DNA of 64,000 nt from Chiloscyllium plagiosum (Eukaryota), in the NCBI RefSeq assembly GCF_004010195.1, contig NC_057754.1, positions 1,588,823 through 1,652,822 of the forward strand. Direction: 5' to 3'. The notes beneath the pieces are model-generated. The model did not search any database. It had not been told where the DNA came from and saw only the letters and a list, made by a program, of their open reading frames with translations. This document shows, in pieces, positions 262-63,817 of this stretch. How positions within the stretch are numbered: the stretch's first letter is position 1; every line of letters starts with the position of its first letter. The position numbers and the translations under genes were made by a program.

Positions 262-1225
262 CCAATACCTAGCAATGCTCATCTCATGCAAAATAGAGTC
301 TTAACTACATTCCCTTGATATTCAAACATATTACCATTGCTGAATCTCTCACCATCCTGGAAGGTATCATTTACCAGAAATTTAATGGGGAGAAAGTGAG
401 GACTGCAGATGCTGGAGACAGAGTCAAGAGTGGGGTGCTGGAAAAGCAAAGCAGGTCAGGCAGTATCCGAGGAGCAGGCAAATCAACATTTCGGGCAAGA
501 GCTCTTCATTAGGAATGAGGCTTGTGAGGCCGAGAGGGTGGAGAGATAAATGAGAGGGGGGTGTGGGTAGCTGAGAGTGCAATAGGTAGATGGAGGTGGG
601 GATAATGGTGATAGGTCAGAGAGGAGGGTGGAGCGGATAGGTGGGAAGGATGATGGACAGGTAGGACAGGTCATGAGGGCGGTGCCGAGTTGGAAGGTTG
701 GAACTGGGATAAGGTGGGGGGGGTGGGGATATGAGGAAACTGGTGAAATCCACATTGATGCCATGTGGTTGGAGGGTCCCAATGCAGAAAATGAGACGTT
801 CTTCCTCCAGGTGTCCGGTGGTGAGGGAGTGCCAATAGAAGAGGCCCAGGACTTGCATGTCCTTGATGGAGTGGGAAGGGGAGTTGAAGTGTTCGGCCAT
901 GGGGCGGTGGAGTTGGTTGGTGCAGGTGCCCCAGAGACATTCTCTGAAGCCCTCTGCAAGTAGACATCCTGTCTCCCCAATGTAGAGGAGACCGCATTGG
1001 GAGCAACGTATACAGTAAATGACGTGGAAGTGCAGGTAATTTACTGGACCAACTCCACAAATACTATGATTACAAGAGCAGATTAGAGGCTGAGAATTTG
1101 GGTGTGATTCTCTAGAGCCTGACCAACATTTTCAAGGCATACTTTCCACTTGCCTAGATGAGCAGTTCCAGCAACATTGAAGAAGCTCAACAGCATCCAG
1201 GACAAAGCAGTCCTCTTGCTTGGCA
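262..1225 (+). mobile_element. Old Crack/CR1-group LINE 3' fragment, split by a Penelope insertion (LINE parts ~262-389 and ~1039-1225)
   Basis: Both parts align by eye with the LINE at ~8600-8900 (e.g. aagaagctcaacagcatccaggacaaagc vs aagaagcttaacactatccaggacaaagc). AATTTA occurs on both sides of the inserted PLE. Confidence 0.6.
390..1038 (-). mobile_element. Penelope-like element family A, 5'-truncated: GIY-YIG endonuclease C-terminus plus terminal repeat with decayed hammerhead
   Basis: Minus ORF 616-900 (AEHFNSPSHS..MQVLGL..LEEERLIFCIGTLQPHGINVDF) is the typical PLE GIY-YIG C-terminal motif. Minus 483-512 reads cctaatgaagagctcttgcccgaaatgttga. Confidence 0.85.
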
Positions 1226-1227
1226 CC

Positions 1228-1368
1228 AGTTTTGAGGAAGGATCACTTGATCCAAAACGTTAACCCTGATTTCTCTCCACAGACGCTGCCAGTTCTGTTA
1301 AGTTTTTGCAGCAATTTCTGGATTTTTGTTTCTGATTTACAGCATCTGCAGTTCTTTCTTTTTTTTAA
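1228..1368 (+). mobile_element. Penelope-like terminal fragment, family D
   Basis: ttgaggaaggatcacttgatccaaaacgttaac (decayed hammerhead) followed by ...cagcatctgcagttc. Homologous to copies at 5638, 10225 and 15497. Confidence 0.75.
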
Positions 1369-1441
1369 TCAACTTAGTAAACCTCCTCTGAACTGTCTAC
1401 AACACATTTACATTCTATCTTAAGAAGACCAAACTGCACAC

Positions 1442-2335
1442 GTGATTTGGAGATGCCGGTGTTGGACTGGGGTGTACAAAGTTAAAAATCACACAACATC
1501 AGGTTATAGTCCAATAGGTTTAATTGGAAGCACTAGCTTTCGGAGCGCTGCTCCTTCATTAGGTGGTTGTGGAGGACACAATGTAAGAGTCAGAATTTAT
1601 AGCAAAAGTTTACAGTGTGTCTGTGTGTGTGTGTGTATAGTGCAATGGTGGTCACCTGTAGTATGACATGAACCCAAGGTCCCGGTTGAGGCCCTCCCTA
1701 TGGGTATGGAACTTAGCTATCAGCCTCTGCTTGGCCACTTTTCACTGCTGCCTGTCCCGAAGTCCGCCTTGGAGAATGGTCACCCGAAGGTCACACACAC
1801 ACCCCCAGACACTCACACACACACACACCCCAGACACTCACACATACTCACAAAGACCCACATGCACGCATATACGTTTGTGGGGTGAATTTGTACTTGC
1901 AGAGTTACTTTGTACCTAGCTCAAAAACTTCATGAATTCATGTAAGACTCTGTTATCTCCCTTTTTAGATTGGAATCAGTCTAAACATTATGGCACAGAC
2001 AGAGAACACAGGGGGCTAACACCTTCAACATATTGCCTGGCTAACACCAATTGTTACAGTCACCCTGAGAATGTAACTTTTTAAAAAAGGTTTTGTGATT
2101 TACATATGAAAGAAGTGAAACTATCATGGTATTTGAACAGATGAGAGACTCAACAAACAATCAAGGTATTTTTCAATGTATAATTTCAGTTACATCACAC
2201 GTAAACTTTTGCTATAAATTCTGTGTCTTACAATTGTGTCCTCCACAACCACCTAATGAAAGAATGGCGTCCGAAAGCTAGTGCTTCCAATTAAACCTAT
2301 TGGACTATAACCTGGTGTTTTGTGATTTTTAACTT
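1442..2335. mobile_element. Penelope-like element family B with inverted termini, inserted in a minus-strand CR1 fragment
   Basis: Minus ~1653-1790 translates LRVTILQGGLRDRQQ*KVAKQRLIAKFHTHREGLNRDLGFMSYYR* (GIY-YIG C-terminus). ~1478-1612 and ~2200-2335 are inverted copies. TSD caaactg(c/a)acac at 1430-1441 and 2336-2347. Confidence 0.85.
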
Positions 2336-2371
2336 CAAACTGAACACAGTATTCAAGATTTGGAACTGAAG

Positions 2372-5470: not shown

Positions 5471-5637
5471 GCCTCCTTCATTTTTTTGATAAATTATACA
5501 TTGACTTACTTATTGAATAACTTGCAATCTCTTGAGTCACTTGAGGGTTTAAAGCAAAATTCTTCCTGAGATTTTAACATAGGTGATAAGACTGCAATTA
5601 TTCTTCTGAGAAGGAGGGCTGAAGTCCTTGAGGTGAT

Positions 5638-5772
5638 AAAAATCAAAAGAACTGCTGATGCTGTAAGTTGTAAATAAAATTACAAATTGCCAGAAAAGCT
5701 CAATAGTTCTGGCAGCATCTGTGGAAAGAAATCAAACTTAACGTTTCAGATCGAGTGACCCTTCCTCAGAAC
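5638..5772 (-). mobile_element. Penelope family D terminal fragment
   Basis: Reverse complement of the 1228 and 15497 copies. Confidence 0.8.
5740..5769 (-). ncRNA. Minimal type I hammerhead ribozyme motif (family D), core intact
   Basis: Minus strand: CUGAGGA-A-GGGUC-ACUC-GAUCU-GAAA-C-GUU. Conserved core, helix II and NUH triplet are present. Confidence 0.65.
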
Positions 5773-10224: not shown

Positions 10225-10356
10225 AAACCAAGAATTGTGGATGCTGGAAATCTGAAACAAAACCAGAAATTGCTGGAGAAATTCAGCAGGTCTGGCAGCA
10301 TCTGTGGAGAGAAAGCAGAGTCAATGTTTAGAGTCCAGTGACCCTTCATCAGAACA
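10225..10356 (-). mobile_element. Penelope family D terminal fragment
   Basis: Minus gttctgatgaagggtcactggactctaaacattga (hammerhead with GAAA mutated) plus the family tail. Confidence 0.8.
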
Positions 10357-10521
10357 CTTCATATCTTACCAAACTCACCTCGTTAACAGCTATGTCATTC
10401 CTATATGTCCTTCCATCCGTCTACGTCCATCTTACTGTGCACCATTTCCAGAACAACTCACCATTCATCAGATATCCGCTAAAAGATTCACATCCATCTT
10501 AAATTAGATTAGGTTCTTAAA

Positions 10522-10823
10522 TTAGATTACTTACAGTATGGAAACAAGCCCTTCAGCCTAACAAGTCCACACCGATCCTCCAAAGAGCAACCCATCCAGA
10601 CCCATTCCCTTACACCTAATACTACGGGCAACTTAGCATGGCCAATTCACCTAACCTGCACATCTTTTGGACTGTGGGAGGAAACCGGAGTACCTGGAGG
10701 AAACCCACGCAAACACGGGGAGAATGTGCAAACTCCACACAGACAGTCGCCTAAGGTGGGAATTGAACCCAGGTCTCTGGCTTTGTGAGGCAGCAGTGCA
10801 AACCACTGTGCCACCGTGTCGCC
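10522..10823 (-). mobile_element. HE1-type V-SINE
   Basis: Minus strand has a tRNA-like head, V-domain (gtctgtgtggagtttgcacattctccccgtg...gggtttcctcc) and a CR1-like 3' tail. Confidence 0.9.
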
Positions 10824-10919
10824 CACTCCTGGTGCCTGCATCATACTTAAAATGCTGCTGTGCACCAGGACAAGCACTAAAGTTCTACAACTGCCCAGCT
10901 GGGTCAAGGACAAAGTCAG

Positions 10920-11514: not shown

Positions 11515-11759
11515 ACGAAAGTGAAGACTGCAGATGCTGGAGATTAGAGTTGAGAGTGTGGTGCTGGAAAAGCACAGCAGGTCAGGCAGCATCCGAGGAG
11601 CAGGAGAATCGACATTTCGGGCAAAAGCCCCTCATCAGCAATGGCATGTCTTATGGCAGAACTGAATGAGATGTCCAGTGAGCAGGCGAATCGATGTTTC
11701 GGGCAAAAGCCTTTCCCGATGAAGGGCTTTTGCTTGAACCTAAATTCTCTTGCACACCC
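11515..11759. mobile_element. Rearranged Penelope family A insertion
   Basis: Minus terminal repeat at 11515-11640, further hammerhead pieces in both orientations at 11680-11740, TSD gacatctcg at 11506-11514 and 11760-11768. Confidence 0.8.
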
Positions 11760-12477
11760 GACATCTCGTTCAGTTCTGCCACAAGACGCTATCGTCCACA
11801 TTGCTTAGACCTATATGTGATTCCACCCATAATGTTGCAGCATTTTAAGATAGCAGTCAGAGAGAGAATTGTTTCACCCTGCTCTGCAATCTTGCTTTAG
11901 AACGCATAACCTGAAGTGTTTTAGAATTCTCAAATTGCGTACTCATGCTTGTGAATTATGATTTTGAACCAGTTAAGCTAAAAGAGTAAACATTTTAGTG
12001 ATGCTACGCCAGAAATTCTTTTTTAGCCAAGTGTCTCATATTTTTACTCAATGCTTGAATAAATACAAAGATCAACTAAATTGTAATTCTACATGTTGCA
12101 ATAAACCATTGATAGAAGTCATATTTAGAGCTTGGGAGGACAGTGGGGGGAAAATGTCAAACATATGGGCATAATATTGACAGAAAGATGGTGAAGTAGA
12201 AGAGTTTAAAACATTGGGGTGATGTTCAACATTTAGTAAGTTTGTGAATCCTGAGCAGACATTTATGATGTTGATGTAAGAACGCTTGGGATTTGCTTAG
12301 ATTCAGACTGATGAGGGAATCTTTGTTAGGAACAAGGCAAAAAGCTTCTTGAAGGCAGATTTGGTCATGAAAGAATTGTGGGAATTCAACTTGCAGTCTA
12401 AAGGGATGGTGAGACTATGAATGTTGATCATTGTCAAAAGACTAAAGTGCTACCATACGTCTGAAATAACGAATTTT

Positions 12478-12642
12478 GAGAAGATTTGTAGCTCAGGATG
12501 AGGTTCTGGATGTAGGTTTGCTCGCTGAGCTGGAAGGTTCACTTCCAGACATTTTCGAGGCCCACTGAAGATGTTAGCTAGTAGGGTGACGAAACGTCTG
12601 GAAATGAACCTTCCTGCTCAGCAAGCAAACCTACATTCAGAT
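12478..12642. mobile_element. Penelope family C fold-back terminal element
   Basis: ~12505-12556 and ~12590-12641 are inverted copies. Starts aagatttgtagctc like the family C copy at 46780. Confidence 0.8.
12562..12601 (+). ncRNA. Minimal type I hammerhead ribozyme motif (family C), core intact
   Basis: CCA-CUGAAGA-U-GUUA...UGAC-GAAA-C-GUC-UGG: helix I CCA/UGG, helix II GUUA/UGAC, GUC triplet at 12596-12598. Confidence 0.75.
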
Positions 12643-15431: not shown

Positions 15432-15591
15432 CCAGAATGATGAGAATGTCACTTGGAGAGTGAGACTGAATGATAATTGGTAGCAAGGAAATGCCAGTTC
15501 TGAGGAAGGGTCACCGGACTCAAAATGTTAACTCTGATTTCTCTTCACAAATGCTGCCATGCATGCTGAGCTTTTCCAGCAACTTCTGTTT
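15432..15591 (+). mobile_element. Penelope family D fragment (from ~15497) with a ~66-bp captured 5' segment
   Basis: ttctgaggaagggtcaccggactcaaaatgttaac. TSD ttggtt(c/t)agaacttg at 15417-15431 and 15592-15606. Confidence 0.75.
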
Positions 15592-16199
15592 TTGGTTTAG
15601 AACTTGTTTGAATGATTTAGCTTCATGTTGGAGACGGTTATAAAAAGGAATTCTAACTGGGTCTGTTAGAATTAACATAAGATATTACAAACATACTTGT
15701 TTTCATTAAGGAAACTAGTTTTGTATAAAATCTTGCAGCATTATTTAATTGTTCTTTATTTGCTTGATGCGCGTAATGAGCCACTGATATGCTGATACTC
15801 AGAGACTTTCTCAAAATGTGAAAAATATCATGTGTATGAATAGTGTAGTTCCAGGAATCAAATCAGGTATTAAAGAAAACATTTTTGCTCTTTGTCTTGG
15901 ACCAGTTTTAAAATATACCTAGCTATCAAAGCCAGTTAAAGTACTTTTAAGGTTGTGAGGATTTAAGAACTTACTTCTTGGACAAATTTAGACTAAGCAG
16001 GTCAGAAACATACAAACAAATGACTTAGAAGCAGAAGCAGGCAACTTGGCTCCTCAAGTCTTCAGTTAGTGTTTTTTAGGGAATTCATGAGGAACGTCTT
16101 TACCCAGACAATGATGAGAATGCCACTTGGAGAGTGAGATTGGAAATAATAACAGGCAACAAGAAAATGCCAGAAACTTTGAATAAGTATTTTTTATCT

Positions 16200-17244: not shown

Positions 17245-18180
17245 TAAAGAAATAGTACTGCAGATGCTAGAGATCTGAAATAGAAAGAAAATTCCAAAGA
17301 AACTCAGTAGTCTGATAGCACCACCTCCACGATAATCCTCAACACCAGTGTGCTGCAAGGCTGTGTAACTGGATCGTTGACTTCCTGACCCATAGACCAC
17401 AATCAGTAAGAATAGGTGATAGCACCTCCTCCACGATAATCCTCAACACTGGTTTGCTGCAAGGTTGCGTACTTAGCCCCCAATATACACCTTATACATT
17501 CATGACTGTGTTGCTAAATTCCACCCCAACTCTATTTACAAGTTTGCTGACAACGCTACCATCGTAAATTAAATCTTAAATAACAACAAGACAATTCAAG
17601 AAAGAGATTGAATGCTGAGCAGCATGGTGTAAAGACGACAAGTTAACATTTTGAGTCCAATATGACTCTTCTTGGGAACTAAAGGGATTGGAAGTTATTA
17701 GGAATTACGTTGAAGAAAAAGTGGGAAGGAGGAGGACATGGAACAGATGATAAAAATGCCCCAGAGCAAAAGGCAATAACAGTGCTAATGGAAGCAGGAA
17801 AGAGATATGGATGAAGAATAGGTGTTAATAACAGAAAATAGGTCAGATGTAGTGACAGCAAATCTGTCACTACATCCATGCAAACAAGACACTGGGTATG
17901 GGTGAAGAAGGGAGTGAAGATAATCAAAATGGAGCTCAGTTCTCGTGGTTTGAAATTGTTAAATTCAATATAGAATACTGAAGCTGTTAACTGTCTAAAT
18001 GGAAAATTAAGTGCTGTTCTTCCAGCTTGTGCTGGGCTTTACTGAACATTGCAGTTAGACCTAGAATGGAAATATAGGCAAGGGAGCAAAAAGGTGTATT
18101 GAATGTCAAACACATTAAGATTGGAGGCATTCTTGTAGGTTGTGTGGAGGGTTTCCACAAAGTACTCTCACAGTCAGAAA
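17245..18180 (-). mobile_element. Old Penelope (family D-like) element, interrupted by Rex1 sequence
   Basis: Minus ~17995-18037 translates AQHKLEEQHLIFHL (GIY-YIG C-terminus). Terminal repeat is split between 17245-17320 and 17640-17680. Confidence 0.65.
17320..17640 (+). mobile_element. Internal Rex1/Babar RT fragment
   Basis: Aligns with ~19137-19407, including the KFADN (FADD box) region. No 3' tail. Confidence 0.8.
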
Positions 18181-28689: not shown

Positions 28690-29660
28690 GCTCATTGAGA
28701 AGTGCACTTACCTCTCAGTCTGAAAGTTATACATAAAAGTCCCCCTTCAAGATTTGAACACAAGAATATGGGCTGACAATCCACTACTATTGCATGAGTG
28801 AGTCCTGCAATGTTGGAAGTATCAGACTGCCTCACTGTCAGAGGGTCAGTACCAAGTGAACACTGCATATTGGATAACTAGTACCAAAGAAATACTGCAT
28901 TGTTAGATGGTCAGTACTGAGATGATGCTACCTGTTAGAGGGTCATTACTGAAGGAGCACAGAACTGTTGGAGAGGCAATAGCCGAGTGAGTGTTGCATT
29001 GTCAAGAGTCAATGCTGAGTGAGCGCTGCACTGTCAGACAATCATTGCTAAGGTAGCATTACACTGTTGGAGGGACATTACAGAGGGACTGCTGCACTGT
29101 CAGAGGCTTGGTCCTGATGGAGCACCACACTATTGGAGGGTTACTAATGAGGAAGTACTACAGTTTTAGAGGGTCATTTCTAAAGGAGTACTGCAGTGTT
29201 GGAGGTTCACTAATGAGGGAATGCCGCACTGTCATAGGATCAGTAATGAAGGAGTGCCACATTGTTAGAGGGTCAGTACTGAAAGGGTGTTGCACTGTTG
29301 GAGTACTGAAGGAGTGCTGCGCTGTTGGAGGGTCAGTACTGAAGGAGTGCTGCATTGTCAGATTGTTAGTACTAAGGAAGTGATGCAATACTGGAGGGTT
29401 AGTACTGCGGAAGTGATGCACTGTTTTTGGATAAACCTTTAAAATGATGCTCACTCTAGCCTCACACTGAGTTAGCCTGGCGTCATGAATAATTTTAATC
29501 CCTCAATTACTATTACTGAAACAGAAATCTGGCTTGTAACAGGAATTTGCCATGAATAAATTGGATGCTGTGTTTCCTGCATTGCCAGTTTGTACAGATC
29601 AAGTACCTAATTCAGCATAAAATATTTGGAGCATTCTTAGGTTGTGAAAAGCACTTGAGA
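28690..29660 (+). mobile_element. Deu-domain SINE with internal 33-bp tandem expansion
   Basis: Decayed tRNA-like head at 28690-28780, array ~28790-29425, SINE 3' part (aaattggatgctgtgtttcctgc) after ~29500. Confidence 0.7.
28790..29425 (+). repeat. Minisatellite, 33-bp unit CTGCACTGTTGGAGGGTCAGTACTGAAGGAGTG, ~19 diverged copies
   Basis: Direct periodicity; produces the 11-aa repeat (GGSVLKECCTV-like) in ORF 29108-29383. Confidence 0.9.
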
Positions 29661-30435
29661 AATTAAAGTACTTTTTTTTCAAATCAACTTTTAGTGTAAT
29701 ATATACAGAATAATGTTTTTTGTTTTCTCTCCCCTCTATGGCATTTACTGTCAGGGTGAAATTTTCCTTTATTGAAAAATCAGGTTTATCTGCAAATGGT
29801 TGTGGGAAAATGAGACTGCACACTGGGAACACATTTAAGAGCGAGTGCGTTTCCTGTTCACCACTGACTGTCTTTTATGGAAAAGTCCATTAATGTTGAC
29901 AGTGGAGTAATTGTTTGAAATAGAGGAAGTAGTCATGTAAAAACTGAACCCAACATAACTGATGAATTTTCTCTTATTTCTCAGTGGAACAGAGCTTGTG
30001 AAGAACACAAAATGAAAAGTTTAACTTATTGCACCCAACCCTCCTTATAAAGGTTGCTGTTACACCAGTATTCATATTTCCACTTCTGATGTACAGTGTA
30101 TTATTGCCACTCTTACAAGCCCACCATATTATTAGGCTCCGAATAGAAAATCATCTTTGTTACATACTTTTCTCATGAGCAAGATCTCTGGTGTTCTGCA
30201 TTCTCAGTGGCTATGATTTTGGCAGTTTTGGCTGCAAAGTAAACAAGACAACACCACAATTACTGAGTAGTTCACTTCTGTGTAAAAGGGTGGTCAGCTC
30301 TGGCACCTTTGAAGGCAGCACTGCTTCCCGTGATAAACGTAAACACTTCAAAATCTGAGGTCACAGGTGAGCTGAGGACTAACCCCAACATCTCAAGTTA
30401 ACCCTGAAGTTTCTGCATGACTAGATCTACATGAA

Positions 30436-30515
30436 GGTAGCTTTTGCCCGAAACGTCGATTTTGCTGCTCGTCGGATGCTGCCTGAATTGCTGTGCTCTT
30501 CCAGCACCACTGATC
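30436..30515 (+). mobile_element. 80-bp Penelope family A fragment
   Basis: gcttttgcccgaaacgtcga...ccagcaccact. Perfect 15-bp TSD ctagatctacatgaa at 30421-30435 and 30516-30530. Confidence 0.9.
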
Positions 30516-33085: not shown

Positions 33086-33574
33086 GTTTTCTTTGTTCTA
33101 AAAGGATACAGTGTGACTCAGGTTGATAGAACGGTCATTGTAAATGCAGTCAGACAAATAATGGGTCTTACTCCCAGTTGGGTTGTTGTGAGGTAGAAAT
33201 CTAGAAGATAGGGTCAGCACTTCTCTCTTGAAACTATGTTTATCTGGGCTGTGATCAATACTGTCTCAGTAGCCAGTTCGAAAGCACCATGCGTTAGGAA
33301 CAGAAAATCTCTAAACTAGGACAGAATGTAGGAACTTTCAGAGAGGAGCCTGTAAGAATCTTACAGTGATATTTGGTGTTACAGGCGCTCTCCTCGAAGT
33401 GCAGATATCACAGGATGTATTGATAGCTGTTGTCAATAGCTAATGTGCCTGGAATCCAAGATGGCAGTGAAATGGGATGCTGCAGTTGGAGCTCGTCTGC
33501 TCAAACCTTTCCCTTCTTTTTCTTTTTTTAAATCTCGTGTTTTTTTTCTCTTTTTTTTTCCTCTTCCGCCAGCA

Positions 33575-37668: not shown

Positions 37669-37669
37669 A

Positions 37670-37800
37670 AGGTAAAAACAATGACTGCAGATGCTGGAAA
37701 CCAGATTCTGGATTAGTGGTGCTGGAAGAGCACAGCAGTTCAGGCAGCATCCAAGGAGCTTCGAAATCGACGTTTCGGGCAAAAGCCCTTCATTAGGAAT
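37670..37800 (-). mobile_element. Penelope family A terminal fragment
   Basis: Minus attcctaatgaagggcttttgcccgaaacgtcga. Confidence 0.85.
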
Positions 37801-37975
37801 TTAAGTCTTGAATGGTGATATGAAAGTCACCGTTCTGATTTCACCCCAGGCTCCTACAACCCACTCACACAGGATTGCTAGCATTAGATCACATATGCTA
37901 CCTTCTTTGGTGAATGTCTTTCTCCCCTGTTGTTCCAGTTATTTCACTTCTCTTTCCTGTTATCCTTGAAGGACA

Positions 37976-38063
37976 GCTACATGCTGAAGAAGCAGTGCTC
38001 CAAAAGCTAGTACTTCCAAAGAAACCTGTTGGACCCTAGCCTGGTGTTGTGTGATTTTTAACT
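37976..38063 (+). mobile_element. Penelope family B fragment
   Basis: gcagtgctccaaaagctagt...gtgatttttaact; ttgaaggaca duplicated on both sides. Confidence 0.8.
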
Positions 38064-38864
38064 TTGAAGGACATGTTTAGAGAGATATTCATGGTTGAAC
38101 AAGGCTGATTAGACTACCAGGAATCACTTCAATATCGCTGTTTTGTAATCTAGCTTCAGGAACTGATATGATCTGAGCATGTTTCGTATGGAAAAATACT
38201 TATTAAATAATTTATTAATACTTATTATTTGATATTTCAGGCTGGAAACCAGAAACTTTCCTAAGTCATATTTTCAAGCCCCCTTGATCCATCCATCATT
38301 TGTTGTAAACGAGGAATACTACTCCTTTTGGGAACTGCTGTTTGGGATGTTTTTGTCTTCAATATCACCACTGATTTAAGCAATGCCAGGTTGGACAATT
38401 CTGATATTTTCATTGATGTATTTTGAAAAGTTGTTTTCCCCTGTAGTCACATGCTAGGCTTTCCTCTATTTGCATAGTTATTCTTAGATATCTCCCTAAG
38501 TTGTGTAGCAAGCTACCTATAATCTCTGTGTCTTCCTTGGTATCTTCAATTCTTTAACTGCTGCACAGTATCAGATCTGCAGTCTCAAGACTTTAAATCT
38601 GATCTGGGCTGTATAACTACCGTTCCCTCTTGATGCCATTTTGTCACATGGCTACAAACAAAGATATAATTAAAGTTCGCACTTGTTGTACCAGCACAAA
38701 ATTCGAGAAAAATAACTCAGTCCTGTAGTGGGACAGGTAGGAACTCAGCACATGCCGGTGAGGTGGTAACCTTGACAGCCATGAGAAGCTGAACAGATGC
38801 TTTCAATAATGTGCCATTCCATGCTTCTGCAACACAAGTTTGACTTCAACAGTCAGTTAGTGAC

Positions 38865-41530: not shown

Positions 41531-41694
41531 TGCTATTTAGATTAGATTATTTTTAATCGGCTGCCAGAACCGGCTTGCTGTATTCTTCCAGTCTCCTGCC
41601 TATCTACTTTTGATTCCAGCATCTGCAGTGTTCATGTCTCAAAATAAAATGAAGAAACATTTGAATTAATGGGTCAGTTTTCCAGACTTGCAGC

Positions 41695-44019: not shown

Positions 44020-45445
44020 TGAGGAAGTGACTATGAGGATTGATGAGGGTAGTGCAATGGATGTTGTCAACATGGATTTTTGTAAAGTATTTGACGTGGT
44101 CCCATATGGCTGACCGATCAAAGAAGTAAAAGCCGATAGAATACAGGTTAATGTGTTAGAAAGAATCCAAAATTGCTTTTGTAACAGGAACTAGGAGAGA
44201 CTGAGGACTGCAGATGCTATCTGCAGTTGCTGAATGCAGCGATCTGCATTTTCCAGATGCTGGAGAATCAGAGTTGATGTTTCATGAGCAAGGGAGTTGA
44301 TGTATCAGGCATAAACCTTCTTCAGGACTAAAGAAGGGTTATGCCCAAAACATCGACTCCTTTGCTCCTCAGATACTGCCTGACCTGTAGTGCCCTTTCC
44401 AGCGCCATGCTTTATCAACTCTTTAGTAACAGGAAACAAATGGTAATGGTCAATTGCTGCCTTTCAAATGGAAAGCTTTTTCAGGTGGTGTTCTGCAGGG
44501 CTTGGTGTTGGTACCATTGCTGTTTGTTTTATACATTAACAATTTGGACTCAAACATGGAGGGCACAATTGGGAAATTTGCAGACGACACAAAAACTGGC
44601 CGTATAGTAGATCGTGTCGAGTATGGCTGTAAGCTCCAAAATGATATAGATGGGTTGGTGGAGTGGCTATGAAAGTGGCAGATGGAATTCAATTCTGATA
44701 AGTGTGAAGTAATGCATTAGGGAAGTGAAATAATAAAAAGGAATTTTCAGTAAATGGGAATATACTGAGGAGAGTAGATGAAGTGAGAGATCTTGGCATG
44801 CAAGTGCACAGGTCCCTAAAATTAGCATGACGGGCAGATAAAGTTGTAAAGAAGTCATATGGAATGCCCCTCTTCATTGACAGAGGTATAGAATACAGAA
44901 GTAGGGATATAATGATGAAACTGTATAAGACACTGGTGAGACCACAATGGGAGTATTGTGTGCAGTTCTGGTCACACTTTAATGAAAGATGAATTTGCTC
45001 TGGAGAGTGTGTAAAAAGGATTGACTAGAATGTTGTCAGGGTTGGAGAATTGTAGCTCAGAGGAGCGATTGGGGTTGCTTTCTTTGGAACAGAGAGGGCT
45101 GAGGGGTGACATGATTGAGGTATTCAAAATTGTGAGGGGTAGAAATAGAGTAGACAGGAGGGACCTGTTTCTCTTGGCAGAAATTTCAAAAACCAGGGGT
45201 CATAGATTCAAACTGAGTGACAGAAAGATTAGAGGAGACATGAAGAAAACCTTTTTACACAAATGGAGGAATTTACTGCCTCCATTTGTGTTGGAGTCAG
45301 AGTCCCTCAATTCTTTTAAAGCGAGCCTGTAGGCTGTAGGGCTATGGACTGTGTGCAGGAAGCTGGGATTAAGTAGGGCATCTGGGTGTCTTTGGCATGG
45401 ACAAGATGGACTGAATGATCCCTTTCTGTGCTGTATCATTTCTAT
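44020..45445 (+). mobile_element. CR1 RT and 3' end, decayed, with nested fold-back PLE family A insertion (~44190-44422)
   Basis: GVLQGLVLVPLLFVLYINNLD..KFADDTK. Nested PLE is flanked by gtaacaggaa repeats. Confidence 0.9.
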
Positions 45446-46779
45446 TGTTATTTACTCTTTCCTTTCTTCCCCTACTGTTTGCTTACTTTTTAAAAATAGC
45501 TCACGTTATATTTTTGAGTTTGACTCTGGATGTGCACCCAGAGGTTGAGACAGCAATTTCAAACGACCACTCCGTAATGGGGTGTGCATTTTGGAGTTAT
45601 GGAATAAAGGGTCAACAATATTGCTATTCTGCAAATAATGAATAAGTGTGGTACGTAAAGAGTGATTGTCTTCTCTTACCATCCTTTATATGTAGAGATG
45701 ATTTGTAAAGCCTATTAATTTTTTTATTAATACATTAGTTTCACCCCTATTTGCAACCCCAACTTGCCTCTGTCTCCAAGGAATGACCATTGCTAATGGT
45801 AGATCATAAGTGATTGACAGAGAGTATTTTTCAGTACCTTTGAAGAATTGTATCCCCCACATCAGCTGAAACACACTAGAGAGTCTGAATCGGTAAATTC
45901 TGCAATTATTGTGAAGACATCTGTTATTTTGAATATGCCTACTGTTAGCATTTCACTTTCAATTTACTGATCCAAGGCTCTGCTCTGCATTTTTTCTACA
46001 TTAATGTGACTGCTTTATCTCTTCACCATGTTAATTCAGCATAATTTATACATAATAAATAGGGCCAAGTGAGTGCTGATTTAAGCTCTAAACCTGCTTA
46101 AGGGTAACAGTGACATGTTGACAGAACATTTGTCAAGGACATTAATGTGGCTGCTGGAATGCAAGCCATTGCTAATAAAAACATCAGAGCAAATATGTTG
46201 GAATTTTGCTTTCTCTTTCCCATTGCTATCCTTTGATACCATCTTCCCCTCTGTTCCTGACATCATGCTGACTTGAGCAACATTCTGTGCTTGCAGATTT
46301 CTGGATTCCTCTCAGTGGTATTACCTGATCATGTATAGGAAGTACATATCATTATGGTGTAACTTTGTTATCCAGCTTTCTCTCCAACATTGAGCTACCT
46401 CTGGACACTTGAGATTGACATCTTGACTAAGATCACAAACCCACTGATTGGAAAATCACAAGCATGTATTGGGCTGCTATAATCTGTGAATATTATTAGT
46501 ATATCAGTTGTGATTCTGTGGCACGAAAATGGTTAATTCAAGAGTACATCATAACAAAACAGTTGCTCCCAGTTTAAAACATTCATGGATATATATTTTC
46601 ATCTTCCAAACCCAATTCATTAGTTATGGGAGCATCCATAATTAGCATTATTCTTGCAGTTATTAATTTTTATATTGTCTTCAAGAATGATCACAATTAG
46701 TCAAAGTATTACAGTTCATTTGATTTAATAGAAAGTGAACAAAATGCAGGTAGACTAGAAGGAAAGTTTCCAGGATTGT

Positions 46780-47155
46780 GTAAAGATTTGTAGCTCGGGT
46801 CCCAGTTGCAGTTGCTGTGGTATGTTCGCCGAGCTGGGAATTTGGTTTGCAGACATTTTGTCCCCCTTCTAGTTGACCTCCTCAGTGTCATGGAGCCTCC
46901 AGTGAAGCACTGCTATACTGTTTCAGTTGGAATTTCTTTGGTTTTGTTCCTGCTGCTTCGGTTGCCAGTTGCAGTTGTTTGTTGCAGTGATCGGTATATT
47001 AGCTCTAGGTCAATGTGTTAATTGATGGAGTCCGTGGATGAGTACCAAGCTTCTAGGATCTGGCTGTCTTCTGTTTGGCCTGTCCTATTATTGTTGTGTT
47101 GTCCCAGTTGAATTTGTGGTCCTTGTCATCTGTGTGCAGAGATACTAAGGACAGC
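46780..47155 (-). mobile_element. Penelope family C fragment
   Basis: Minus LEAWYSSTDSIN*HIDLELIYR (PLE ORF end) and decayed hammerhead ctgaggaggtcaactagaagggggacaaaatgtc. Confidence 0.75.
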
Positions 47156-47318
47156 TGTTTACGTTTCGAGCATAAGCTGTTCATATCCAAAGAACTTACG
47201 CTCGAAATGTTGATGTTCCTGCTCGTCGGATATGAAAAGCTTATCCTCGAAATGCCAACTCTCCTGCTCCTCAGATGCTGCCTGGCCTGCTATGCTTTTC
47301 CAGCACCACACTTTGTAC
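47156..47318. mobile_element. Tandem/inverted Penelope family A terminal pieces
   Basis: Three hammerhead 3' halves: acgtttcgagcataagc (minus), cttacgctcgaaatgtt, gcttatcctcgaaatgcc. Confidence 0.7.
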
Positions 47319-47319
47319 T

Positions 47320-49920
47320 ATAGCCCCCTTCCCCCAAAAAAGTCAGAGGGAATTTGAGGAACAAATATGTAGAGAGATCTCAGATATATGTAAGAATAAT
47401 AAGGTGGTAAGAATAGGTGGCTTTAATTTTCCAAACATTGACTGGGATTGCCTTAGTGTCAAAGGCTTAGAATAAGAGGAATTTGTTAAATGTGTTCACA
47501 AAAATTTTCTTTATCAATATCTAAATGCACTTACTAGAGAAGGAGCCTGGGAAATAAGGCAGGGCAAGTGACAGAAGTGTTAGTAGGGGAACACTTTAGG
47601 AAGAGTGATCATGATTCTATTAGTTTAAAATAGTTATGGAAAAGGATAAGCCTTCCATGAAAGTTAAAGTTCTTAATTGGAGTAAGGTAAATTTCAATAG
47701 CATGAGACAAGAATTTTCAAAGGTTGGTTGGAGTAGTCTGTTCGCAGGTTAAGAGATGACTGACAAATGGAAGGCTTTCAGAAGTGTGATAACGGGCGTT
47801 GAGAGGCATTATGTTCCTGTTTGAGTACAGGGTAGCTTGGTAAAAGTAGGGAACAATGGATGAATAAAGATATTGAGGTTCTAATCAAGAATAAGAAAAA
47901 AATCTTATTTTAGATATAGACAACTAGGATCAAATGAATCTCTTGAAGAGTACAAAGCATGTAAGGGCGTTCTTATGTGGGAAATCAGGAGGACGAAGAG
48001 GGGATATGAGATAACCTTGGCAGATAAGGTTAAGGATAACCCAAAGAGATTCTACAAGGTTAAAAATCGCACAACACCAGGTTATAGTCCAACAGGTTTA
48101 ATTGAAGATTCTGCAAGTGCATTAAGAGCAAAAAAGCAACTAGAGAGAGAAAACAGGGCCCCTTAAAGGTCAACGAAGTTATTTATGTGTTGAACTTCAG
48201 GAGATGGGAGACATACTAAATGAATACTTCATGTCAGTTTTTACTGTGGAGGAAGAAATGGAGGTTAGAGAGCTTGGGGAAATAAATATTGATATTTTGA
48301 AAACAGTTCACATTACAGGAGAAGTGCTGGAGGTCTTAAAAAACATAAAGGTGGATAAATCTCCAGAACCTGATCTAGTGTATCCGAGGACAATGTGGGA
48401 AGTTAGGGAAGAAATTGCAGGGCACCCAGCAGAAGTATTTAGATCATCTATAACCATGGGTGAGGTGCTGGAGGACTGGAGGCTGGCTAATGTTATACCT
48501 TTATTTAAGAAAGGCTGTAAGGAAAAGCCTGGGAACTGTAGACCTGTGAGCCATACATTGATGATGGGTAAGTTGTTGGAAATGATTTGAGAGATATGAT
48601 TTACATGCATTCGGAAAGGCAAGGACTGATCAGGGATAGGCAGCATGGTTTTGTACATGGGAAAACATGTGTCACAAACTTGTTTGAGTTTTTTGAGGAA
48701 GAAACCAAAACGATTGATGGGAGCAAAGCAGTAGACATTGCTTATGTGTACTTTAGTAAAACCTTTGACACGGTTCCACATGTTAGACTAATTAGTAAAG
48801 TAAGATCACATGGGATTCAGGGAGAGATTGCCAATTGGATACAAAACTGGCTTGGCAGTAGGAGACAGAGGTTGGTGGTGGAGGATTGTTTTTTGGACTG
48901 GAGGCCTGTGACTTGTGGTGTTCCACAGGAATTGGTACTGAGTCCATTTTTGTTTGTCATTTATATAAATGATTTGGATGACACCAAAATGATAGTGAAG
49001 AAGGCTATCTAAGATTATAAAGAAATCTTGATCAGCTGGACCAATGGACTGAGAAGTGGCAGATGCAGTTTAATTTGGATAAATGTGAGGTGATGCATTT
49101 TGGTGAAACAAACAAGAGCAGGACTTATACAATTAATGGTAGGGCCTTAGAGAACAAAGAAACTGAGGGGTTCAGGCACATAATTCTTGGAAATCTACAT
49201 CACAGGTAGACAGAGTGGTTAAGAAGGCATTTAGCAGGCTTGCCTTCATTGCTCAGAAGTCTGAATATAGAAATTGGGACATCATGTTGAGGTTGTACAG
49301 GATGCACTTCCGTTCGCCTGCTATAGGAATGATATCATGAAGCAACAGAGGGTTCAGGAAAAATTTGGAGAAAGTGAGGACTGCAGGTGCTGGATATCAG
49401 AGTTGAAAAGTGTGGCACTGGAGAAGCTCAGGCAGCATTCGAGGAGCAAGAGAGTCGATGATTTATCAGGCTGTTGCTGGGAATCGAGAGTTTGAGTTAT
49501 AAGGAGAGGCTGGGGATTTTTTTCACTGGAGCATATGTAGTTGAGGGGTGACCTTTTAGAAGTTTATAAAATTGAGGTGCATAGATAAGGTGAAGCGTCT
49601 TTTCCCTAGGGTGGGGGAGTTCAAAACTGGAGGGGAGGTGCATATTTTTAAGGTGAGAGGGTAAAGTTTTAAAAAGGACATACAGAGCGACGTTTTTTAC
49701 ACAAAGAGTGGTACGTATGTGGAATGAACTGCCAGAGGAAGTGGTGGGTGCAGGTGCAGATAAAACATTTAAAAGACATTTTAGATAAGTACATGAATAG
49801 GAAAGGTTTGGAGGGGTATGGGCAAAACGCAGGCAAGTGGGACTACTTAAGATTGGGAACATGGTTGGCATGGACTGGTTGGATCAATGGGTCAGTTTCC
49901 ATTCTGTTTGACTCTATTAC
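47320..49920 (+). mobile_element. Long CR1 ORF2 remnant (APE endonuclease end, RT, 3' UTR) with nested PLE fragments at ~48058-48104 and ~49365-49480
   Basis: GGFNFPNIDW, KSPEPDLVYPR, DWRLANVIPLFKKG, QHGFVHGKTCVTNL, GVPQELVLSPFLFVIYINDLD. Confidence 0.95.
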
Positions 49921-52900: not shown

Positions 52901-55044
52901 ATATGTCTCAGAGCAACACGTATATGGGAAGTGTTACCAACTGCATAAGCATGAGCTCTGGGTTTCTGAACCTGAGCAGCAGCTGGAGTTCGTGTGCAGC
53001 CATGAGACAGGGGACTGTGTGGATAGCATGTATAGGGAAGTGGGCACAACGTAGACTAGAAATGTACAGACAGAGAAGAAATGAATGACAGTTGAAAGTA
53101 TGGTGCTGGAAAAGCACAGCAGGTCAGGCAGCATCTGAGGAGCAGATAACCAGACAGTTAGTGCAGGAGTCCTGAGTCTATCATACCTGCTAATCAGTAC
53201 TTAATTTTGAAACTGGTGAAGGTAGTGGTTTCTCAGGGGAGTCGAACCAGAGACAAACCCATGGCACTCAGTTGTACAGGGGAGGAAATAGGAGAATGGA
53301 AGAGTACTGGTTTCAGGAGACTCCATAGTCAGTGGATCAGACAACTGCTTCTGCGGCAGTAAACAGGACTCCAGGACGATGTCTTGCCTCACTGATGCCA
53401 GGGTGAAGGAACTAATGGAGCAGTTGCAGAACATCCTTCTGGGAGAAGGATATCAATTTGAAGTCATTGTTCACATTGTAACCAATGACATAGATAAGAA
53501 GGATGAACTTGAAGGAAGTTAGGAAAGAAATTCAAACAAAGACCTCAAATGCAACAACTTCAGAATTACTCCCAGTGCCGTACAGTCATGAGCATAATAA
53601 CGGGAGGATGGACTAAATGATTGAATATGTGACTAGAGAACTGATATGAGAATAATGGCATCAGTTCTGGGGCAGGTGGGACCTATACAAACTAGTCAGG
53701 TTGCACTTTAATGGGGTTGGGACTGATATCTTCACAGGGAACTTTGCTAGTGTGGTTGGGGATGGGTTTAAACTAGCTTGTCAGGAACATGAGACGTAAC
53801 TCAAAATGGAAGGAAGTAATGTTAGTAACATGAAGTCAAAAAGATGCCACAGAGACAGGACAAATAAAGTCGAACATTGAGTGTACTTCAAATGCAGAAT
53901 GACGTCAAAAAGACCAAGTTAAGTTTGTTTTACTTGAATGCACGCAGCATTTGCAACAAGGTAAATGATCTATAGGAAAAATAGAGATAAATGGATATGA
54001 TCTAATTATACTTACAGAAAGATGGCTGCATGGTGATCAGCATGATCAGGACTGGCAACTGAATTATGAAGGATATTTGATGTTTAGAAAAGACAATCAA
54101 GAAAGAAAATGAACTGGAGTTGCTTGATAATATGGGAGTTGAAGAACAATGTATGGAATCTGTTTGGGTGGAGCTATAAAACAATAAGGGGCATTGGGTA
54201 TTGGTTGGAGTTATTTGAAGGGCACAAAGCAGTAGGGGTATGTGGGGCATGGTATTAATCAGGAAATGAAAGAAGCATATAGTATGAGCATCATGGTTAT
54301 CATGGATCAGTTCAATCTACACATATTTGTTTAAACAATTGAGCACTAAAGCAATGGAGAATGAATTTCTGAATTGTCTTAGAATGGCTTTCTAGAGCAG
54401 TATGTTGAGGAGCATGAAGATATGCTGTTTTAGAACTGGTGTTATGTAGTAAAAAAAGGCTAATTAACAACTTGTAAAATAAAGCCTTTAGGGTCCAAAG
54501 ACCACACTATGATAGAATTTTATGGAATCTGTTTGGGTTTGTTTAAATCTGTTAGAATTTTCTTAGAGTAGGATAAAAGGCTGGCACAACATCAAGGGCA
54601 AAAGGGCTTATACTGTGCTGTACTATTCTATGTTCAAAGTGAGGTAGTCTACTCAGAAGCAAAAGTATTTACATTTGAATAAGGCATGAGGCACAGATTG
54701 ATTGAGGTGGATTGGGAAAATACATGAAAAGGCATAACTGTACAATAGGCAATAGTCAGTAAAGAACCATTAAATGATTAACAGCAACTATACATTCCCA
54801 CAACATGCAAAAACTCAAAAAGGCCAGTCAACCGTGATTAACAAAGGAAGTTCAGGATTGTATGAAATTAAAAGAAAAGACTTAAAGTTGCCAGAAATAG
54901 GAGTAATTCTGAGGATGGTGAGGTTATTGAATTACAGCAAAGGAGGAGCAAGAAATTGATAAGGAGGGAGAACAGAAGATGAACGGAATGTAGCATAAAA
55001 GCGGACTGCAAAAGCTTCAATAAGTATCTGAAATGGAAGTCATG

Positions 55045-55590
55045 AATTGGAGATGCCGGTGTTGGACTGGGGTGTACAAAGTTAAAAATCACACAACACC
55101 AAGTTATACTCCAACAGGTTTAATTGGAAGCACAGTAGCTTTCGGAGTGCTGCTCCATCAGGTGGTTGTGGAGGACACAGTTGTAAGGCACAGAATTTAT
55201 AGCAAAAGTTTACAGTGTGATGTAACTAAAATTATTCATTGAAAAATACCTTGATTGTCTGTTGAGTCTTTCATCTGTTCGAAAACCATGATAGTTTCAT
55301 TTCTTTCGTGTGTAAATCACAAAACTTTTTTTAAAAGTTGCATTCTCAGGTTAACTGTAACAATTGGTGTTAGCTAGACAATATGTTGAAGGTGTTAGCC
55401 CCTTGTGTTCTCTGTCTGTGCCATAATGTTTAGATAGATTCTAATCTAAAAAGTGAGATAACAGAGTTTTACATGAATTCATGAAGTTTTTGAGCAAAGT
55501 ACAATGTAACTCTGCAAGTACAAATTCACCCCACAAATATATGTATTTGTGTGCATGTGGGTCTTTATGTCTGTGTGTGTGGGGGGGGTA
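55045..55590 (-). mobile_element. Penelope family B 3' UTR/terminal repeat nested in CR1, followed by a family A fragment (~55610-55705)
   Basis: Highly similar to 1442-1617 (direct) and ~1850-2335 (inverted). Confidence 0.9.
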
Positions 55591-56221
55591 AAACAGAGAA
55601 CTCAGATCTGGATGACAAGGGCTCCTGCCCGAAATGTTGATTTTCCTGCTCCTTGAATGCTGCCTGACCTGCTGTGCTTTTCCAGCACCACTCTAATCTT
55701 GTCCCTGAAATGGTTGATAATGATCTGATTGGACATAGTCACCACGGATTTGTGAATGCGAAATTATGTTTGACAAACTTTTTGAGAATGTTACTAACAA
55801 AATGACAAAGGAGAATGAATGGATGTAATATACTTAGGTTTTCAGAAGGCTTTTGATAAAGTCCTCCACAGGAGGCTGATTAAAGAATTAAAATGCAGGG
55901 GATAGGAAATGTACTGAATGATAAGCTAACAGACAGGCAAGCTGTGATTAGTGAGGTACACAAGGCTCAGTACTTGGGCCTCAGCTGTTCACAATATTTA
56001 TCAGTGGTTTAGTAGTGGGGACCAAATGTAATATTTCCAAACTTGCAGATGGTGCAAAGCTAAAATTGAGCTAACTGACTCCAGTAAGAAAAACAGATAG
56101 CAGAATATTCCTTAAACTGTAAGAGATTGGCAAGTGTACAAAAGTACAAAAGAACCTCTGTGTTCTTGTCAATAAGTCACGTCTGGTGCAGCAACTATTA
56201 GAAAGGCTAATGTATGTTGTA

Positions 56222-60500: not shown

Positions 60501-61626
60501 TGGCTACTTGTATGAGGTGCCAGAGGACAGCTGATGAACAGGAGCCCCCATGTAAGTTGCACCTCTCAAACCGAAAAGCAGAAAATTGATGAATAAAACA
60601 AAACACAGTACAAAGCCTTCAAAAAAAACCTTTCAGTTTTATGATCATGATGTCATCTGAACTATTTCAATAGATGACTAGCTTGTAATCATGCCCAGGG
60701 ATCCATTATTTTGTATATAGTTTTCACCGGTCCTGTTGTGAATTATGGAATTAAACCACCTAGCAGTAAAATTATCATCGGCTGCTGTTGGATAAATAAA
60801 TATTACCACTGCAATAACAGTGCAGCTTTTTGCAGCAGTAATGGCATAACGAATGGGCCTAGGGAAGAATTATATGCCTGGATCTCCTGCACACATTTCA
60901 GCATTTATTGATCCAGGAGCTGTAAATCTTTCACTTATGATAGAAAGTCGTTAGATCAACCCAAGACAAATTTCAATCATAAAATATATAAAACTAAGTG
61001 ACCTCACACTTGGAGGAGATGAAAGGGACATTGCATGACCCTAGGGGTTGACCTTTCCTCAGCCATTAGCTAACCCAATGGTTGACACTTGTTTACTTTT
61101 AAGTCTGATTTGTGGGATTCATTATAATGTCACCGTTATGTATAACATAAGCTTCTTGAAAAATGCAAGTATACCAAACCCTGCAAAATAATATGATTAT
61201 AATTTAATTCACATAGCTAAAATTGTAGTTGACCTCCAGTTATTGAATCCATGACATCAATTCTATAAACAACATAAATCTGTTGCTAACATTGAAAGGA
61301 GTATATTCAGGCTTTTAAGCATTGCGGTATTAGAATGTTAACAAGGGATCTATTATTTGTGAGAAGCTAACTGATTTTCTATTAAGTTATTTTAGCTGAG
61401 GGACTACTTGAAGAGAAACTGTTGGCCATGCACCACTGTGTGACAGCGATATGCTTCTGTTGTTGCACTTTACACTTCATTAGGTTGCAAAACCAGTATC
61501 AGGCATTATGCTGAAGTGGACATGAGGCACCCTTTTCTGCTTGGTAGAATGAGAGTGCTGGAGAAAGGTGATGAAATAGTAAGCAAACTACTATAATTCT
61601 TTATAAATTGGCAAAGGATGACAAGC

Positions 61627-61834
61627 TGAAAATGTGTTGCTGGAAAAGCGCAGCAGGTCAGGCAGCATCCAAGGAATAGGAGAATCGACGTTTCGGGCAT
61701 AAGCCCTTCTTCAGGAAGGCTTATGCCCAAAACGTCGATTCTCCTGTTCCTTGGATGCTGCCTGACCTGCTGCGCTTTTCCAGCAACACATTTTCAGCTC
61801 TGATCTCCAGCATCTGCAGCCCTCACTTTCTCCT
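61627..61834. mobile_element. Young fold-back Penelope family A insertion
   Basis: ~82-bp inverted arms (61624-61705, 61718-61799) with 2 mismatches. TSD caaaggatgacaagc at 61612-61626 and 61835-61849. Confidence 0.95.
61687..61714 (-). ncRNA. Minimal type I hammerhead ribozyme motif (family A), core intact
   Basis: Minus CUGAAGA-A-GGGC-UUAU-GCCC-GAAA-C-GUC. Helix I is weak. Confidence 0.7.
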
Positions 61835-63114
61835 CAAAGGATGACAAGCAAAAGTTCAGTTGAGTAAAAGTTGTAAAGGGTATGTTTAGGAAATAAATGT
61901 TTTCTTCATTTCCTGCTTCTTTATGGTTTAAGGAAATATTTGCAGATAATCCTAATTTCTTCAACTGAGACTATAACTGTAGTAGGATTTGTACATAGGG
62001 TCACAATTGCCAGCTCTGTTGGTGACCTGGTGGGCCATGATAATAGGCTACATGTGCCAGGTACAGGTTAAGTCTCCAAGCTCTGCTTCATCAACTGCTC
62101 TGAGCCCGGGTGGTAGGTATTGGTGTCTCTAGGCTAGTGCATTGATAGATCATGCTGGATTTTCATCCCTAGCAGTGAGTTGCTGGCAGAGTATGCTATA
62201 TGGAAAGTACATTATGCTCAGCCATGAATACCTCTGGAGGAATCTACTGAAACTCACAAGGTAAGATTAGGTATGAATGACCTCCATATATACCTGAGTT
62301 TTGCTGGCTTCTATGAGCTTCAGCAACTATCATCATCTTCAGGAAAATGAGAAGAGAAACGAGGGAAGAACAAGATAGCAGCCTTCCAGCTTTACTGTAG
62401 ACTTGTGTTTTGGTTTTCTGTAATCTTTCAATGGTAACACTGTGAGATTTCATTCTTTAAAGATTCACTGAGCTTGTTAACTGAGAATTAATGAAATTGA
62501 AGAGCATGTTATGAATTAGTTGCTCACTTGGATAGGGTTAAATTGGATAGTTCTCAATTCCTATTATTCCCAATCTTCCATTACAGCGAATTAGACTCTC
62601 AGGATGTTAGTGAACATTGGAATATGTGATGAAAGAAGGGTCTGACCATATAATTTGGAAATTAATCTTATTTTGAACTGGTCAGTGGTAACTTAGAAGT
62701 CAACACACAATGATGAATGAGATGAGCTGTAAATGAGCTGAGCTGGTATAGCACTGTATAGCTGGTGTGGCTTTCTCTGCGGATGCAATTATATCATTTG
62801 TGTAGACTTTTTCATTCATCCACAGTGTACTCAACTTACTATGTAAAGGCTGGAAATAAAATGTTGATGTATGCTTTCCTCTAAGGATGTAATGGTTAAA
62901 CTTGGTCTCCAATCCATCACCTAGACGTTTTAAATTGCCAGCCAAGTCATTTTTTATGGTCTCCAGAAATGATCTTTAGGTTCAAACAGCTTTAACCTTT
63001 AGTTTGACTGGGATTGCATGTTTTGATGTTACAGCCAGAATTTCAAGAAAAGATTTAAAAATGTGAAATATTTTTTAAGTCTAAAGGACTTGTTGTGGCA
63101 CTTGCATTCTGGTA

Positions 63115-63422
63115 GTTTAGATTAGATTCCCTACAGTGTGGAAACAGGCCCTTCAGCCCAACCAGTCCACACCGACCCTCCGAAGAGTAACTCACCCAGA
63201 CCCATTTCCCTCTGACTAATGCACCTAACACTATGGGCAATTTAGCAAGGCCAATTCACCTGACCTGCACATTTTTGGACTGTGGGAGGAAACTGGAGGA
63301 AACCCATGCAGACACAGGGAGAATGTGCAAACTCCACACAGACAGTCACCCGAGGCTGGAATCAAACCTGTGATCCTGGTGCTGTGAGGCTGCAGTGCTA
63401 ACCACTAAGCCACCATGCCGCC
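63115..63422 (-). mobile_element. HE1-type V-SINE
   Basis: Same structure as 10522-10823; minus head gggcggcatggtggcttagtggttagcactgc. Confidence 0.9.
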
Positions 63423-63721
63423 CATTTATTTTATGGGAAAGTTAAAATTAAGTGTACATTTTTTGAACAGTTGGGGTACCGTCACAACTCAAACAGGTAT
63501 GTGGTTCCACAGACATTAGTGGTGTCCTGGTATTTCATCCACGAAGTCTTTTTTTCCTATGTGTGAAACCATACAGTAATTGTTGGCAAGTTGTTTGATT
63601 GTGAGAGGCTACCGCTGCTAATTCCAGTGACAATGCCATCCTGCTTCCATCCTGGTGAAAGATGAAAGCTCGCTCACCTCATGTTAAAATTAAAACTGGG
63701 ACTCCTCTACTTTGTTTCAAC

Positions 63722-63817
63722 TGTCTTGCTTCTTGGATGCTGCGTGACCGGCTGTGCTTTTCCAGCACCAGACTTTTCGACTCTGATCTCCAGCATTGCA
63801 GTCCTCACTTTCTCCTT
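63722..63817 (+). mobile_element. Penelope family A tail fragment
   Basis: ggatgctgc...gctgtgcttttccagcacca...gcagtcctcactttctcc. Confidence 0.75.

Follow-up and report, generated by a model that had tools for sequence, protein, structure and literature searches.

Minimal type I hammerhead ribozymes have been known since 2014 from the pseudo-long terminal repeats (pLTRs) of metazoan Penelope-like elements (PLEs), where they occur mostly in single, truncated, and widespread copies (Cervera and De la Peña, 2014; PMC4209133). Position 15.2:16.2 of their helix III is C-G, U-A, A-U, or G-C among the 56 motifs of Fig. S3 of that paper, which lists no cartilaginous fish; G-C occurs there in Adineta, Philodina, Schistosoma mansoni, and the painted turtle. 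In PAc, the Poseidon element of Anolis carolinensis, reverse transcription (RT) starts at two internal sites that bound the tail, uncleaved RNA serves as the main template, and the hammerhead cuts only when protein is present (Frangieh et al., 2024; PMC11167929). Insertions of PLEs typically show inverted 5′ copies, tails, target-site duplications (TSDs), and solo pLTRs (Arkhipova et al., 2013, PMC3846280; Craig et al., 2021, bioRxiv 10.1101/2021.04.23.441226), and a CxxC linker marks the Neptune and Nematis elements (Craig et al., 2021). Here, a 64,000-nt stretch of the genome of the shark Chiloscyllium plagiosum (NC_057754.1, positions 1,588,823 to 1,652,822; hereafter the window), an animal-type DNA of about 40% GC that is rich in repeats, is compared with these systems on the basis of the PLE end-pieces that it carries.

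The window copies are read, with a probability of about 0.8, as decaying 3′-end pieces of endonuclease-bearing (EN+) PLEs, the short ones probably being abortive copies of a parent RNA rather than members of a short interspersed nuclear element (SINE) family.

Parent elements and the edges of their copies

The copies were collected with profile searches built from window copies, followed by inspection of their context (390 to 63817), and comprise 26 insertion units with 35 arms (13 units of family A, seven of D, four of B, and two of C). An earlier interpretation made from the letters of the window, referred to here as the sequence-only reading, had named about 20 insertions in these four families; the short PLE copies are real, and the count is revised to the figures just given. 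Coding remnants occur in long copies. The family A long copy (390-1040, minus strand) consists of a GIY-YIG endonuclease remnant (1041-730), a 3′ untranslated region (UTR), a decayed hammerhead (C3 at 512), and a tail; its remnant is 70% identical to an RT-GIY-YIG protein of Chiloscyllium punctatum, and relatives of 813 and 609 aa possess RVT_1 and GIY-YIG domains. No RT remnant of these A-type proteins lies within the window. In the family B head-to-head pair (1441-2335, both strands; TSD CAAACTG), the minus arm joins an endonuclease C-terminal remnant (1792-1655) to a hammerhead (C3 1562) and the plus arm a long 3′ UTR to a hammerhead (C3 about 2251); the remnant is 89% identical to protein P0156 and 87-91% identical to C. 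punctatum proteins, and P0156, which carries a CxxC linker, aligns with the 813-aa RT-endonuclease protein (E 2e-40). The D-like long copy (17574-18160, minus) likewise holds an endonuclease C-terminal remnant (18160-17951; E 1e-7), a 3′ UTR, and a decayed D-like hammerhead downstream (C3 17675). As judged from these GIY-YIG remnants, families A, B, and D (or D-like) belong to the EN+ PLEs; their relatives bear the CxxC linker of Neptune-type elements, unlike PAc, and the window offers neither a 5′ pLTR nor the start of an open reading frame (ORF) for comparison. The family C long copy (46773-47140, minus) combines a frameshifted coding remnant (about 47140-46960) with a hammerhead (C3 46885) and a tail. 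This remnant, which we take to be Poseidon-like although no search confirmed it, gave no Pfam match and no homologue, and in an atlas search all of its matches lay under 0.9, including a GIY-YIG cluster at 0.82 that serves as a lead only. The tail pattern and the endonuclease profile were also searched in viral contigs, with no matches.

Arm starts were measured relative to C3; the local aligner extends some 5′ ends too far through chance matches, and the starts of the minus arms at 44327 and 53141, where the automatic alignment is missing or misplaced, were set by eye. So measured, the starts of 23 of the 35 arms fall within -14 to +10 of C3 (by eye, about -5 to +10); six arms are long, starting more than 50 nt upstream, six start past +20, and none starts between -15 and -50. 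Family B copies end at two fixed 3′ sites, +83 and +119, which resemble the tail and no-tail RT start sites of PAc (Frangieh et al., 2024). In all four families there are long copies with the same tails as the short ones, and the short copies share their 3′ ends with long copies, have their 5′ edge at the front of the hammerhead, and are often folded head to head, with such fold-backs inside seven units. TSD-like repeats of 7-15 bp abut about eight of the 23 units tested, and TSDs, an inverted 5′-truncated copy, and an optional tail are all present among the units. These features are those of EN+ PLEs, for which heavy 5′ truncation, an adjacent inverted 5′-truncated copy, junction palindromes, an optional tail of 30-40 bp, TSDs, solo pLTRs, and an Initiator-like pLTR motif have been described (Arkhipova et al., 2013; Craig et al., 2021). 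In contrast to canonical EN+ PLEs, the points of truncation and inversion in the window fall at the front edge of the hammerhead.

Public reads were placed on 380-1612, by which families A and B and a small part of the family D core were covered. RNA depth there is about 1,100 over the A core and drops to 20-100 at the ORF remnant, a 10- to 20-fold step just 5′ of the core that is followed by a flat stretch of 500 nt; in family B it is 1,437 at C3 and 215 at a point 27 nt upstream, a fall of about 7-fold within 30 nt. Depth depends on the likeness of the window copy to its family and is not a measure of copy number.

From other PLEs, it would be expected that helix III, being palindromic and without a loop, forms only through the pairing of two motifs, that cleavage is weak and may need the protein of the element, and that reverse transcription begins inside the RNA just past the hammerhead. 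In the route proposed here, the enzyme would begin copying in the tail, pass through an uncleaved hammerhead, and mostly stop or fold back at its front edge, which is likely the 5′ end of the RNA; the short copies would then be abortive products of the RNA of an autonomous PLE. The shared 3′ ends, the starts at the hammerhead front, the fold-backs, and the CpG decay described below fit such abortive copying. The suggestion of the sequence-only reading that most copies lost the ORF and spread as SINE-like termini is not supported, no sign of propagation from one short copy to another being seen.

That suggestion nevertheless has points in its favor. The short copies are uniform in size (about 90-140 nt) and sharply bounded at the 5′ side, as would be expected of non-autonomous SINE- or retrozyme-like elements that are transcribed and copied alone with borrowed PLE proteins, and four family D copies begin, by eye, within 3-4 nt of C3. 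Moreover, PLE-derived non-autonomous retrozymes have been described in vertebrates, one chondrichthyan included (Li, Clavereau, and Pollet, 2026; bioRxiv 10.64898/2026.07.22.740005), and the window copies resemble these non-LTR (long terminal repeat) retrozymes in their type I hammerheads, PLE pLTR origin, and chondrichthyan host. Such retrozymes form head-to-tail tandem arrays, however, whereas the window copies are dispersed: none of the 26 units holds a tandem hammerhead array, all being single or head-to-head, with no more than two consecutive arms on the same strand. The 5′ ends also spread over about 25 nt, the fold-back junctions vary from copy to copy, each of the four families has long copies that end in the same tails, with endonuclease remnants in A, B, and D, and no internal promoter was identified. 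An independent life of the short copies is thus considered improbable.

Several observations weigh against abortive copying, and the step that concerns the start of the RNA is its weakest part. The window holds neither a full-length element nor a 5′ terminal repeat, the RNA start was not observed, and the depth profiles reflect how well a window copy matches its family rather than copy number. An Initiator-like TCA(G/T)T (TCAKTY at -6 to -1), 4-6 nt before C3, is found in family A and partly in D, and is absent before C3 in B, C, and the 33 metagenome hammerheads introduced below; its restriction to A and partly D implies that a start site there is not general. Similar 5′ ends could also be expected from a hairpin-induced stop at helix II, or from a self-propagating short master copy. 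In addition, the link of family C to an ORF lacks a homologue, and helix I of family A measures just about 2 bp in the window copies. The Initiator at the hammerhead front was also considered in its own right as a general start site, and was reduced to a lead by the same absences.

Hammerhead cores and their decay

A search for the type I motif, which the sequence-only reading had put forward as a check on its assignment, was made with a strict descriptor (CUGANGA, one nucleotide, a helix II of at least 4 bp, GAAA, NN, UH) and 40 dinucleotide shuffles as the control. It recovered five sites (2386+, 5769-, 11638-, 12565+, and 61714-), compared with a mean of 0.025 (maximum 1) per shuffled window, and a relaxed descriptor, which allowed one core mismatch and required a Watson-Crick or wobble pair at 15.2:16.2, recovered eight against 0.2. 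The five sites lie in a family A fold-back (2372-2472, both strands), whose plus arm has the full core (C3 2386) with helix III decayed to AUGU; a family D short copy with an intact core (5636-5772, minus; C3 5769); a three-arm family A unit (11516-11760, both strands), with a full core on the minus strand (C3 11638), a fold-back at 11713-11716, and the TSD GACATCTCG; a family C fold-back (12471-12641, both strands), intact in the core of its plus arm (C3 12565); and a family A fold-back (61624-61835, both strands), intact in that of its minus arm (C3 61714) and flanked by a 15-bp TSD. The four consensus cores drawn by eye in the sequence-only reading match the window copies. Its statement that most copies retain whole or partial hammerheads holds for partial ones; whole cores are confined to five of the 35 arms, none of them in family B. 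At places where window copies have drifted, CUGAUGA is restored as the majority in the RNA reads for family A at 510 (245 of 257) and for family B at 1560 (1363 of 1437), as it is for both families in the DNA contigs of two organisms. Most window copies are predicted to be inactive as ribozymes.

Helix II was correctly described beforehand as differing in sequence while still pairing: it pairs over 4-5 bp in all four families, and in a MAFFT alignment two-sided changes occur at three of its four pairs and G10.1-C11.1 is G-C in 13 of 15 rows, the B rows being shifted by one column and the C rows partly misaligned at helix II, by which the G-C pair of B is missed, so that a per-arm read-out was used for helix III. 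Helix I, which the sequence-only reading did not include, measures about 2 bp in A, 2-3 in C, 3 in B, and 3-4 in D, with 60% of cells paired across three alignment positions. In their CUGANGA, one inserted base, G10.1-C11.1 helix II, GAAA, loop-less palindromic 15.2:16.2, and NUH, the motifs agree with the published minimal hammerheads, and family A departs from them in having a helix I shorter than the 3-5 bp of most published families (PMC4209133). The sequence-only reading had proposed that the motifs are minimal hammerheads of type I carried by the terminal repeats of PLEs; this assignment is supported by the excess of cores over shuffled sequence, by the helix II covariation and, for A, B, and D, by the endonuclease remnants upstream.

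Loop-less hammerheads are poorly covered by existing models. For this reason, the outcome of an Rfam scan of the window, which placed no hammerhead family among 12 weak matches (E up to 10), is not taken as evidence against the motifs. It is nonetheless one of three results that a chance origin, or non-catalytic hairpins, would explain readily, the others being that minimum-energy folds of monomers and dimers of six copies did not predict the hammerhead fold and that RNA ends are not piled at the cut site. Set against these are the five cores versus 0.025 by shuffling, the exact fit to the published consensus (PMC4209133), and a fixed sense-strand place behind the endonuclease at 33 of 66 related loci, and such an origin is hardly credible.

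Those loci belong to a comparison set of 80 related PLE loci from metagenomes, several of them in the same family, of which 66 extend 200 nt or more past the endonuclease. A minimal hammerhead lies within 600 nt downstream of the endonuclease in the sense orientation at 33 of the 66, versus one in antisense. Position 15.2:16.2 in the 33 is CG in 23, UA in two, AU in one, a CpG-decay form in five, and another combination in two, so that 26 of 33 are Watson-Crick, AUAU and AAUU among them; the pattern of helix III pairing across related PLE loci is thus firm beyond the window. As for antisense motifs near such loci, that at L077:453 (-) is an inverted copy of the locus's own motif, and that at L074:1146 (-) belongs to another family and has an AUAU palindrome.

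Within the window, positions 15.1-16.1 read AGCU in all four family B arms, and ACGU (9), AUGU (9), ACAU (5), or AUGC (1) in the 24 arms of A, C, and D. The ACGU/AGCU swap emphasized in the sequence-only reading is therefore real, but it amounts to one double change, and its importance was overstated: the motif and the paired-base swap have both been in print for PLEs since 2014 (PMC4209133, Fig. S3). Families A and D, whose tails cross-match in a profile search (E 2e-11), are not independent witnesses of covariation, and with the swap being a single event, the covariation of the window is weak evidence on its own. The palindrome has been lost in 15 of the 24 A, C, and D arms, and each loss includes a CpG-type change; the losses are CpG decay. 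Since every departure fits the decay of methylated CpG, the copies do not appear to have been maintained as working ribozymes.

Family B RNA with poly(A)-like tails

Run X21, a single-cell poly(A) RNA run from one sample of which about 2% was read, contains T-runs beyond 1504 (540 reads) and 1507 (468 reads) that correspond to poly(A)-like tails on the family B sense strand, the depth at 1515 being 2,171. These roughly 1,000 family B reads, tailed just past the cut site and coming from one run, are what is new here; a second RNA run, X22, gave no reads on 380-1612. The feature spans 1504-1524 on the minus strand, with an ATTAAA hexamer at 1524-1519 and read ends at 1507 and 1504, 12-15 nt after the hexamer and 27-30 nt beyond the predicted cut site (after 1534); a GU-rich run follows. 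The tailed reads may derive from a small number of host transcripts with a B copy at their end, and the T-runs may instead reflect a genomic A-rich flank at some other copy; the site is possibly a used polyadenylation site inside the family B terminal repeat, perhaps one that ends host transcripts. Neither this site nor the 5′ clustering of the short copies was met in the available text of PMC4209133.

No pile-up of RNA ends at the predicted cut site was reported in X21, and depth at the B core, upstream of that site, is still 1,437; much family B RNA therefore appears uncleaved. PAc is alike in combining a pLTR hammerhead with RNA-seq ends that do not fall at the cut site (Frangieh et al., 2024).

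The genomic 3′ ends of family B (+83 and +119) lie beyond the poly(A) site (+55/+58), which means that an RNA polyadenylated there could not supply the tail by copying from its end. This suggests a model in which the pLTR behaves as a retroviral LTR does, the hammerhead serving as the R region: transcription would begin some 4 nt ahead of the core, the RNA would end at the poly(A) site or at the cut site just past the hammerhead, family B being polyadenylated 27-30 nt past the cut site, and RT would start in the tail of the 5′ repeat, which would be U5-like, so that short copies would be integrated strong-stop complementary DNAs and long copies would need a strand jump at R. The clustering of arm starts at the hammerhead front agrees with this model, as do the B poly(A)-like tails, which begin after the cut site (+28) and before the genomic 3′ ends, and the ATTAAA, which four of five B arms retain and which a GU-rich run follows. 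On the other hand, the tails come from a single run of a single sample, and the reads may stem from few host transcripts; the nine A, C, and D tails checked contain neither AATAAA nor ATTAAA; read-through tandem transcripts or RNA circles would give long copies without any jump; and a poly(A) site so close to the start would need to be suppressed. The model was not found stated in the accessible literature on Penelope with strong-stop or polyadenylation, including the available text of PMC2377424, a scope outside which most subscription papers and bioRxiv supplements fall. It is considered unlikely, and abortive copying of the parent RNA is retained as the preferred account.

Further copies and their meaning

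The remaining copies are mostly short. Family A contributes single copies at 30431-30515 (plus; 15-bp TSD), 34355-34434 (plus; 8-bp TSD), 37676-37801 (minus; C3 37796, one core change), and 55617-55700 (plus), a decayed fold-back at 44190-44425 (both strands; 10-bp TSD), a decayed three-arm unit that combines a fold-back with a tandem arm (47140-47316, both strands), a tail at 53100-53146 (minus), and two copies that start later, one near the predicted cut site (49372-49463, minus) and one at or just past it (63720-63817, plus; 8-bp TSD). The copy at 34355 breaks a GC-rich degenerate tandem repeat with units of about 27 nt (33570-35100). Family D is represented by short copies at 1229-1364 (plus; start about 3 nt before C3 at 1232, decayed core), 10227-10355 (minus), and 15497-15602 (plus; C3 15500, one core change), and D-like sequence by a tail at 17251-17319 (minus; profile match E 1.4e-5) and a decayed short copy at 31324-31416 (minus). 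Family B adds a short copy at 37983-38064 (plus; 10-bp TSD), a tail at 48051-48106 (minus), and a long 3′ UTR copy whose hammerhead is partly deleted (55041-55590, minus). An extra tail-only piece at 41560-41634 (plus), outside the 26 units, is a diverged relative of the A/D tail (E 1.4e-4) and may represent a fifth family.

Ends of different families adjoin one another in several places. In the window itself, D, B, and A ends lie 40-70 bp apart (1364-1441 and 2335-2372), and at other loci, represented by DNA contigs from two organisms, a 3′ end of family A or D adjoins that of family B: joins of 389-1443 occur in 62 and 55 contigs, with further joins that involve 1346-1372 and 1443-1480. PLE families may insert beside each other's tails. 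Other repeats include a degenerate tandem repeat with units of about 29 nt and open frames on both strands (28830-29420), two copies of a dispersed repeat of about 300 bp (10510-10825 and 63120-63425) that is presumably an HE1-type SINE of sharks, and, by eye, many remnants of CR1/L2-like long interspersed nuclear elements across the window.

The shark examples extend a class of motifs that was published in 2014 together with its covariation and, as originally claimed, carry little weight. Greater interest attaches to the short-copy starts and the family B polyadenylation, which together provide a testable map of the template RNA and, as side evidence, bear on the open question of how PLEs replicate and what part the hammerhead plays. 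A used poly(A) site in so abundant a repeat could terminate host transcripts. If the LTR-like model were true, the shark genome would preserve, as a very large fossil record, the intermediates of PLE replication.

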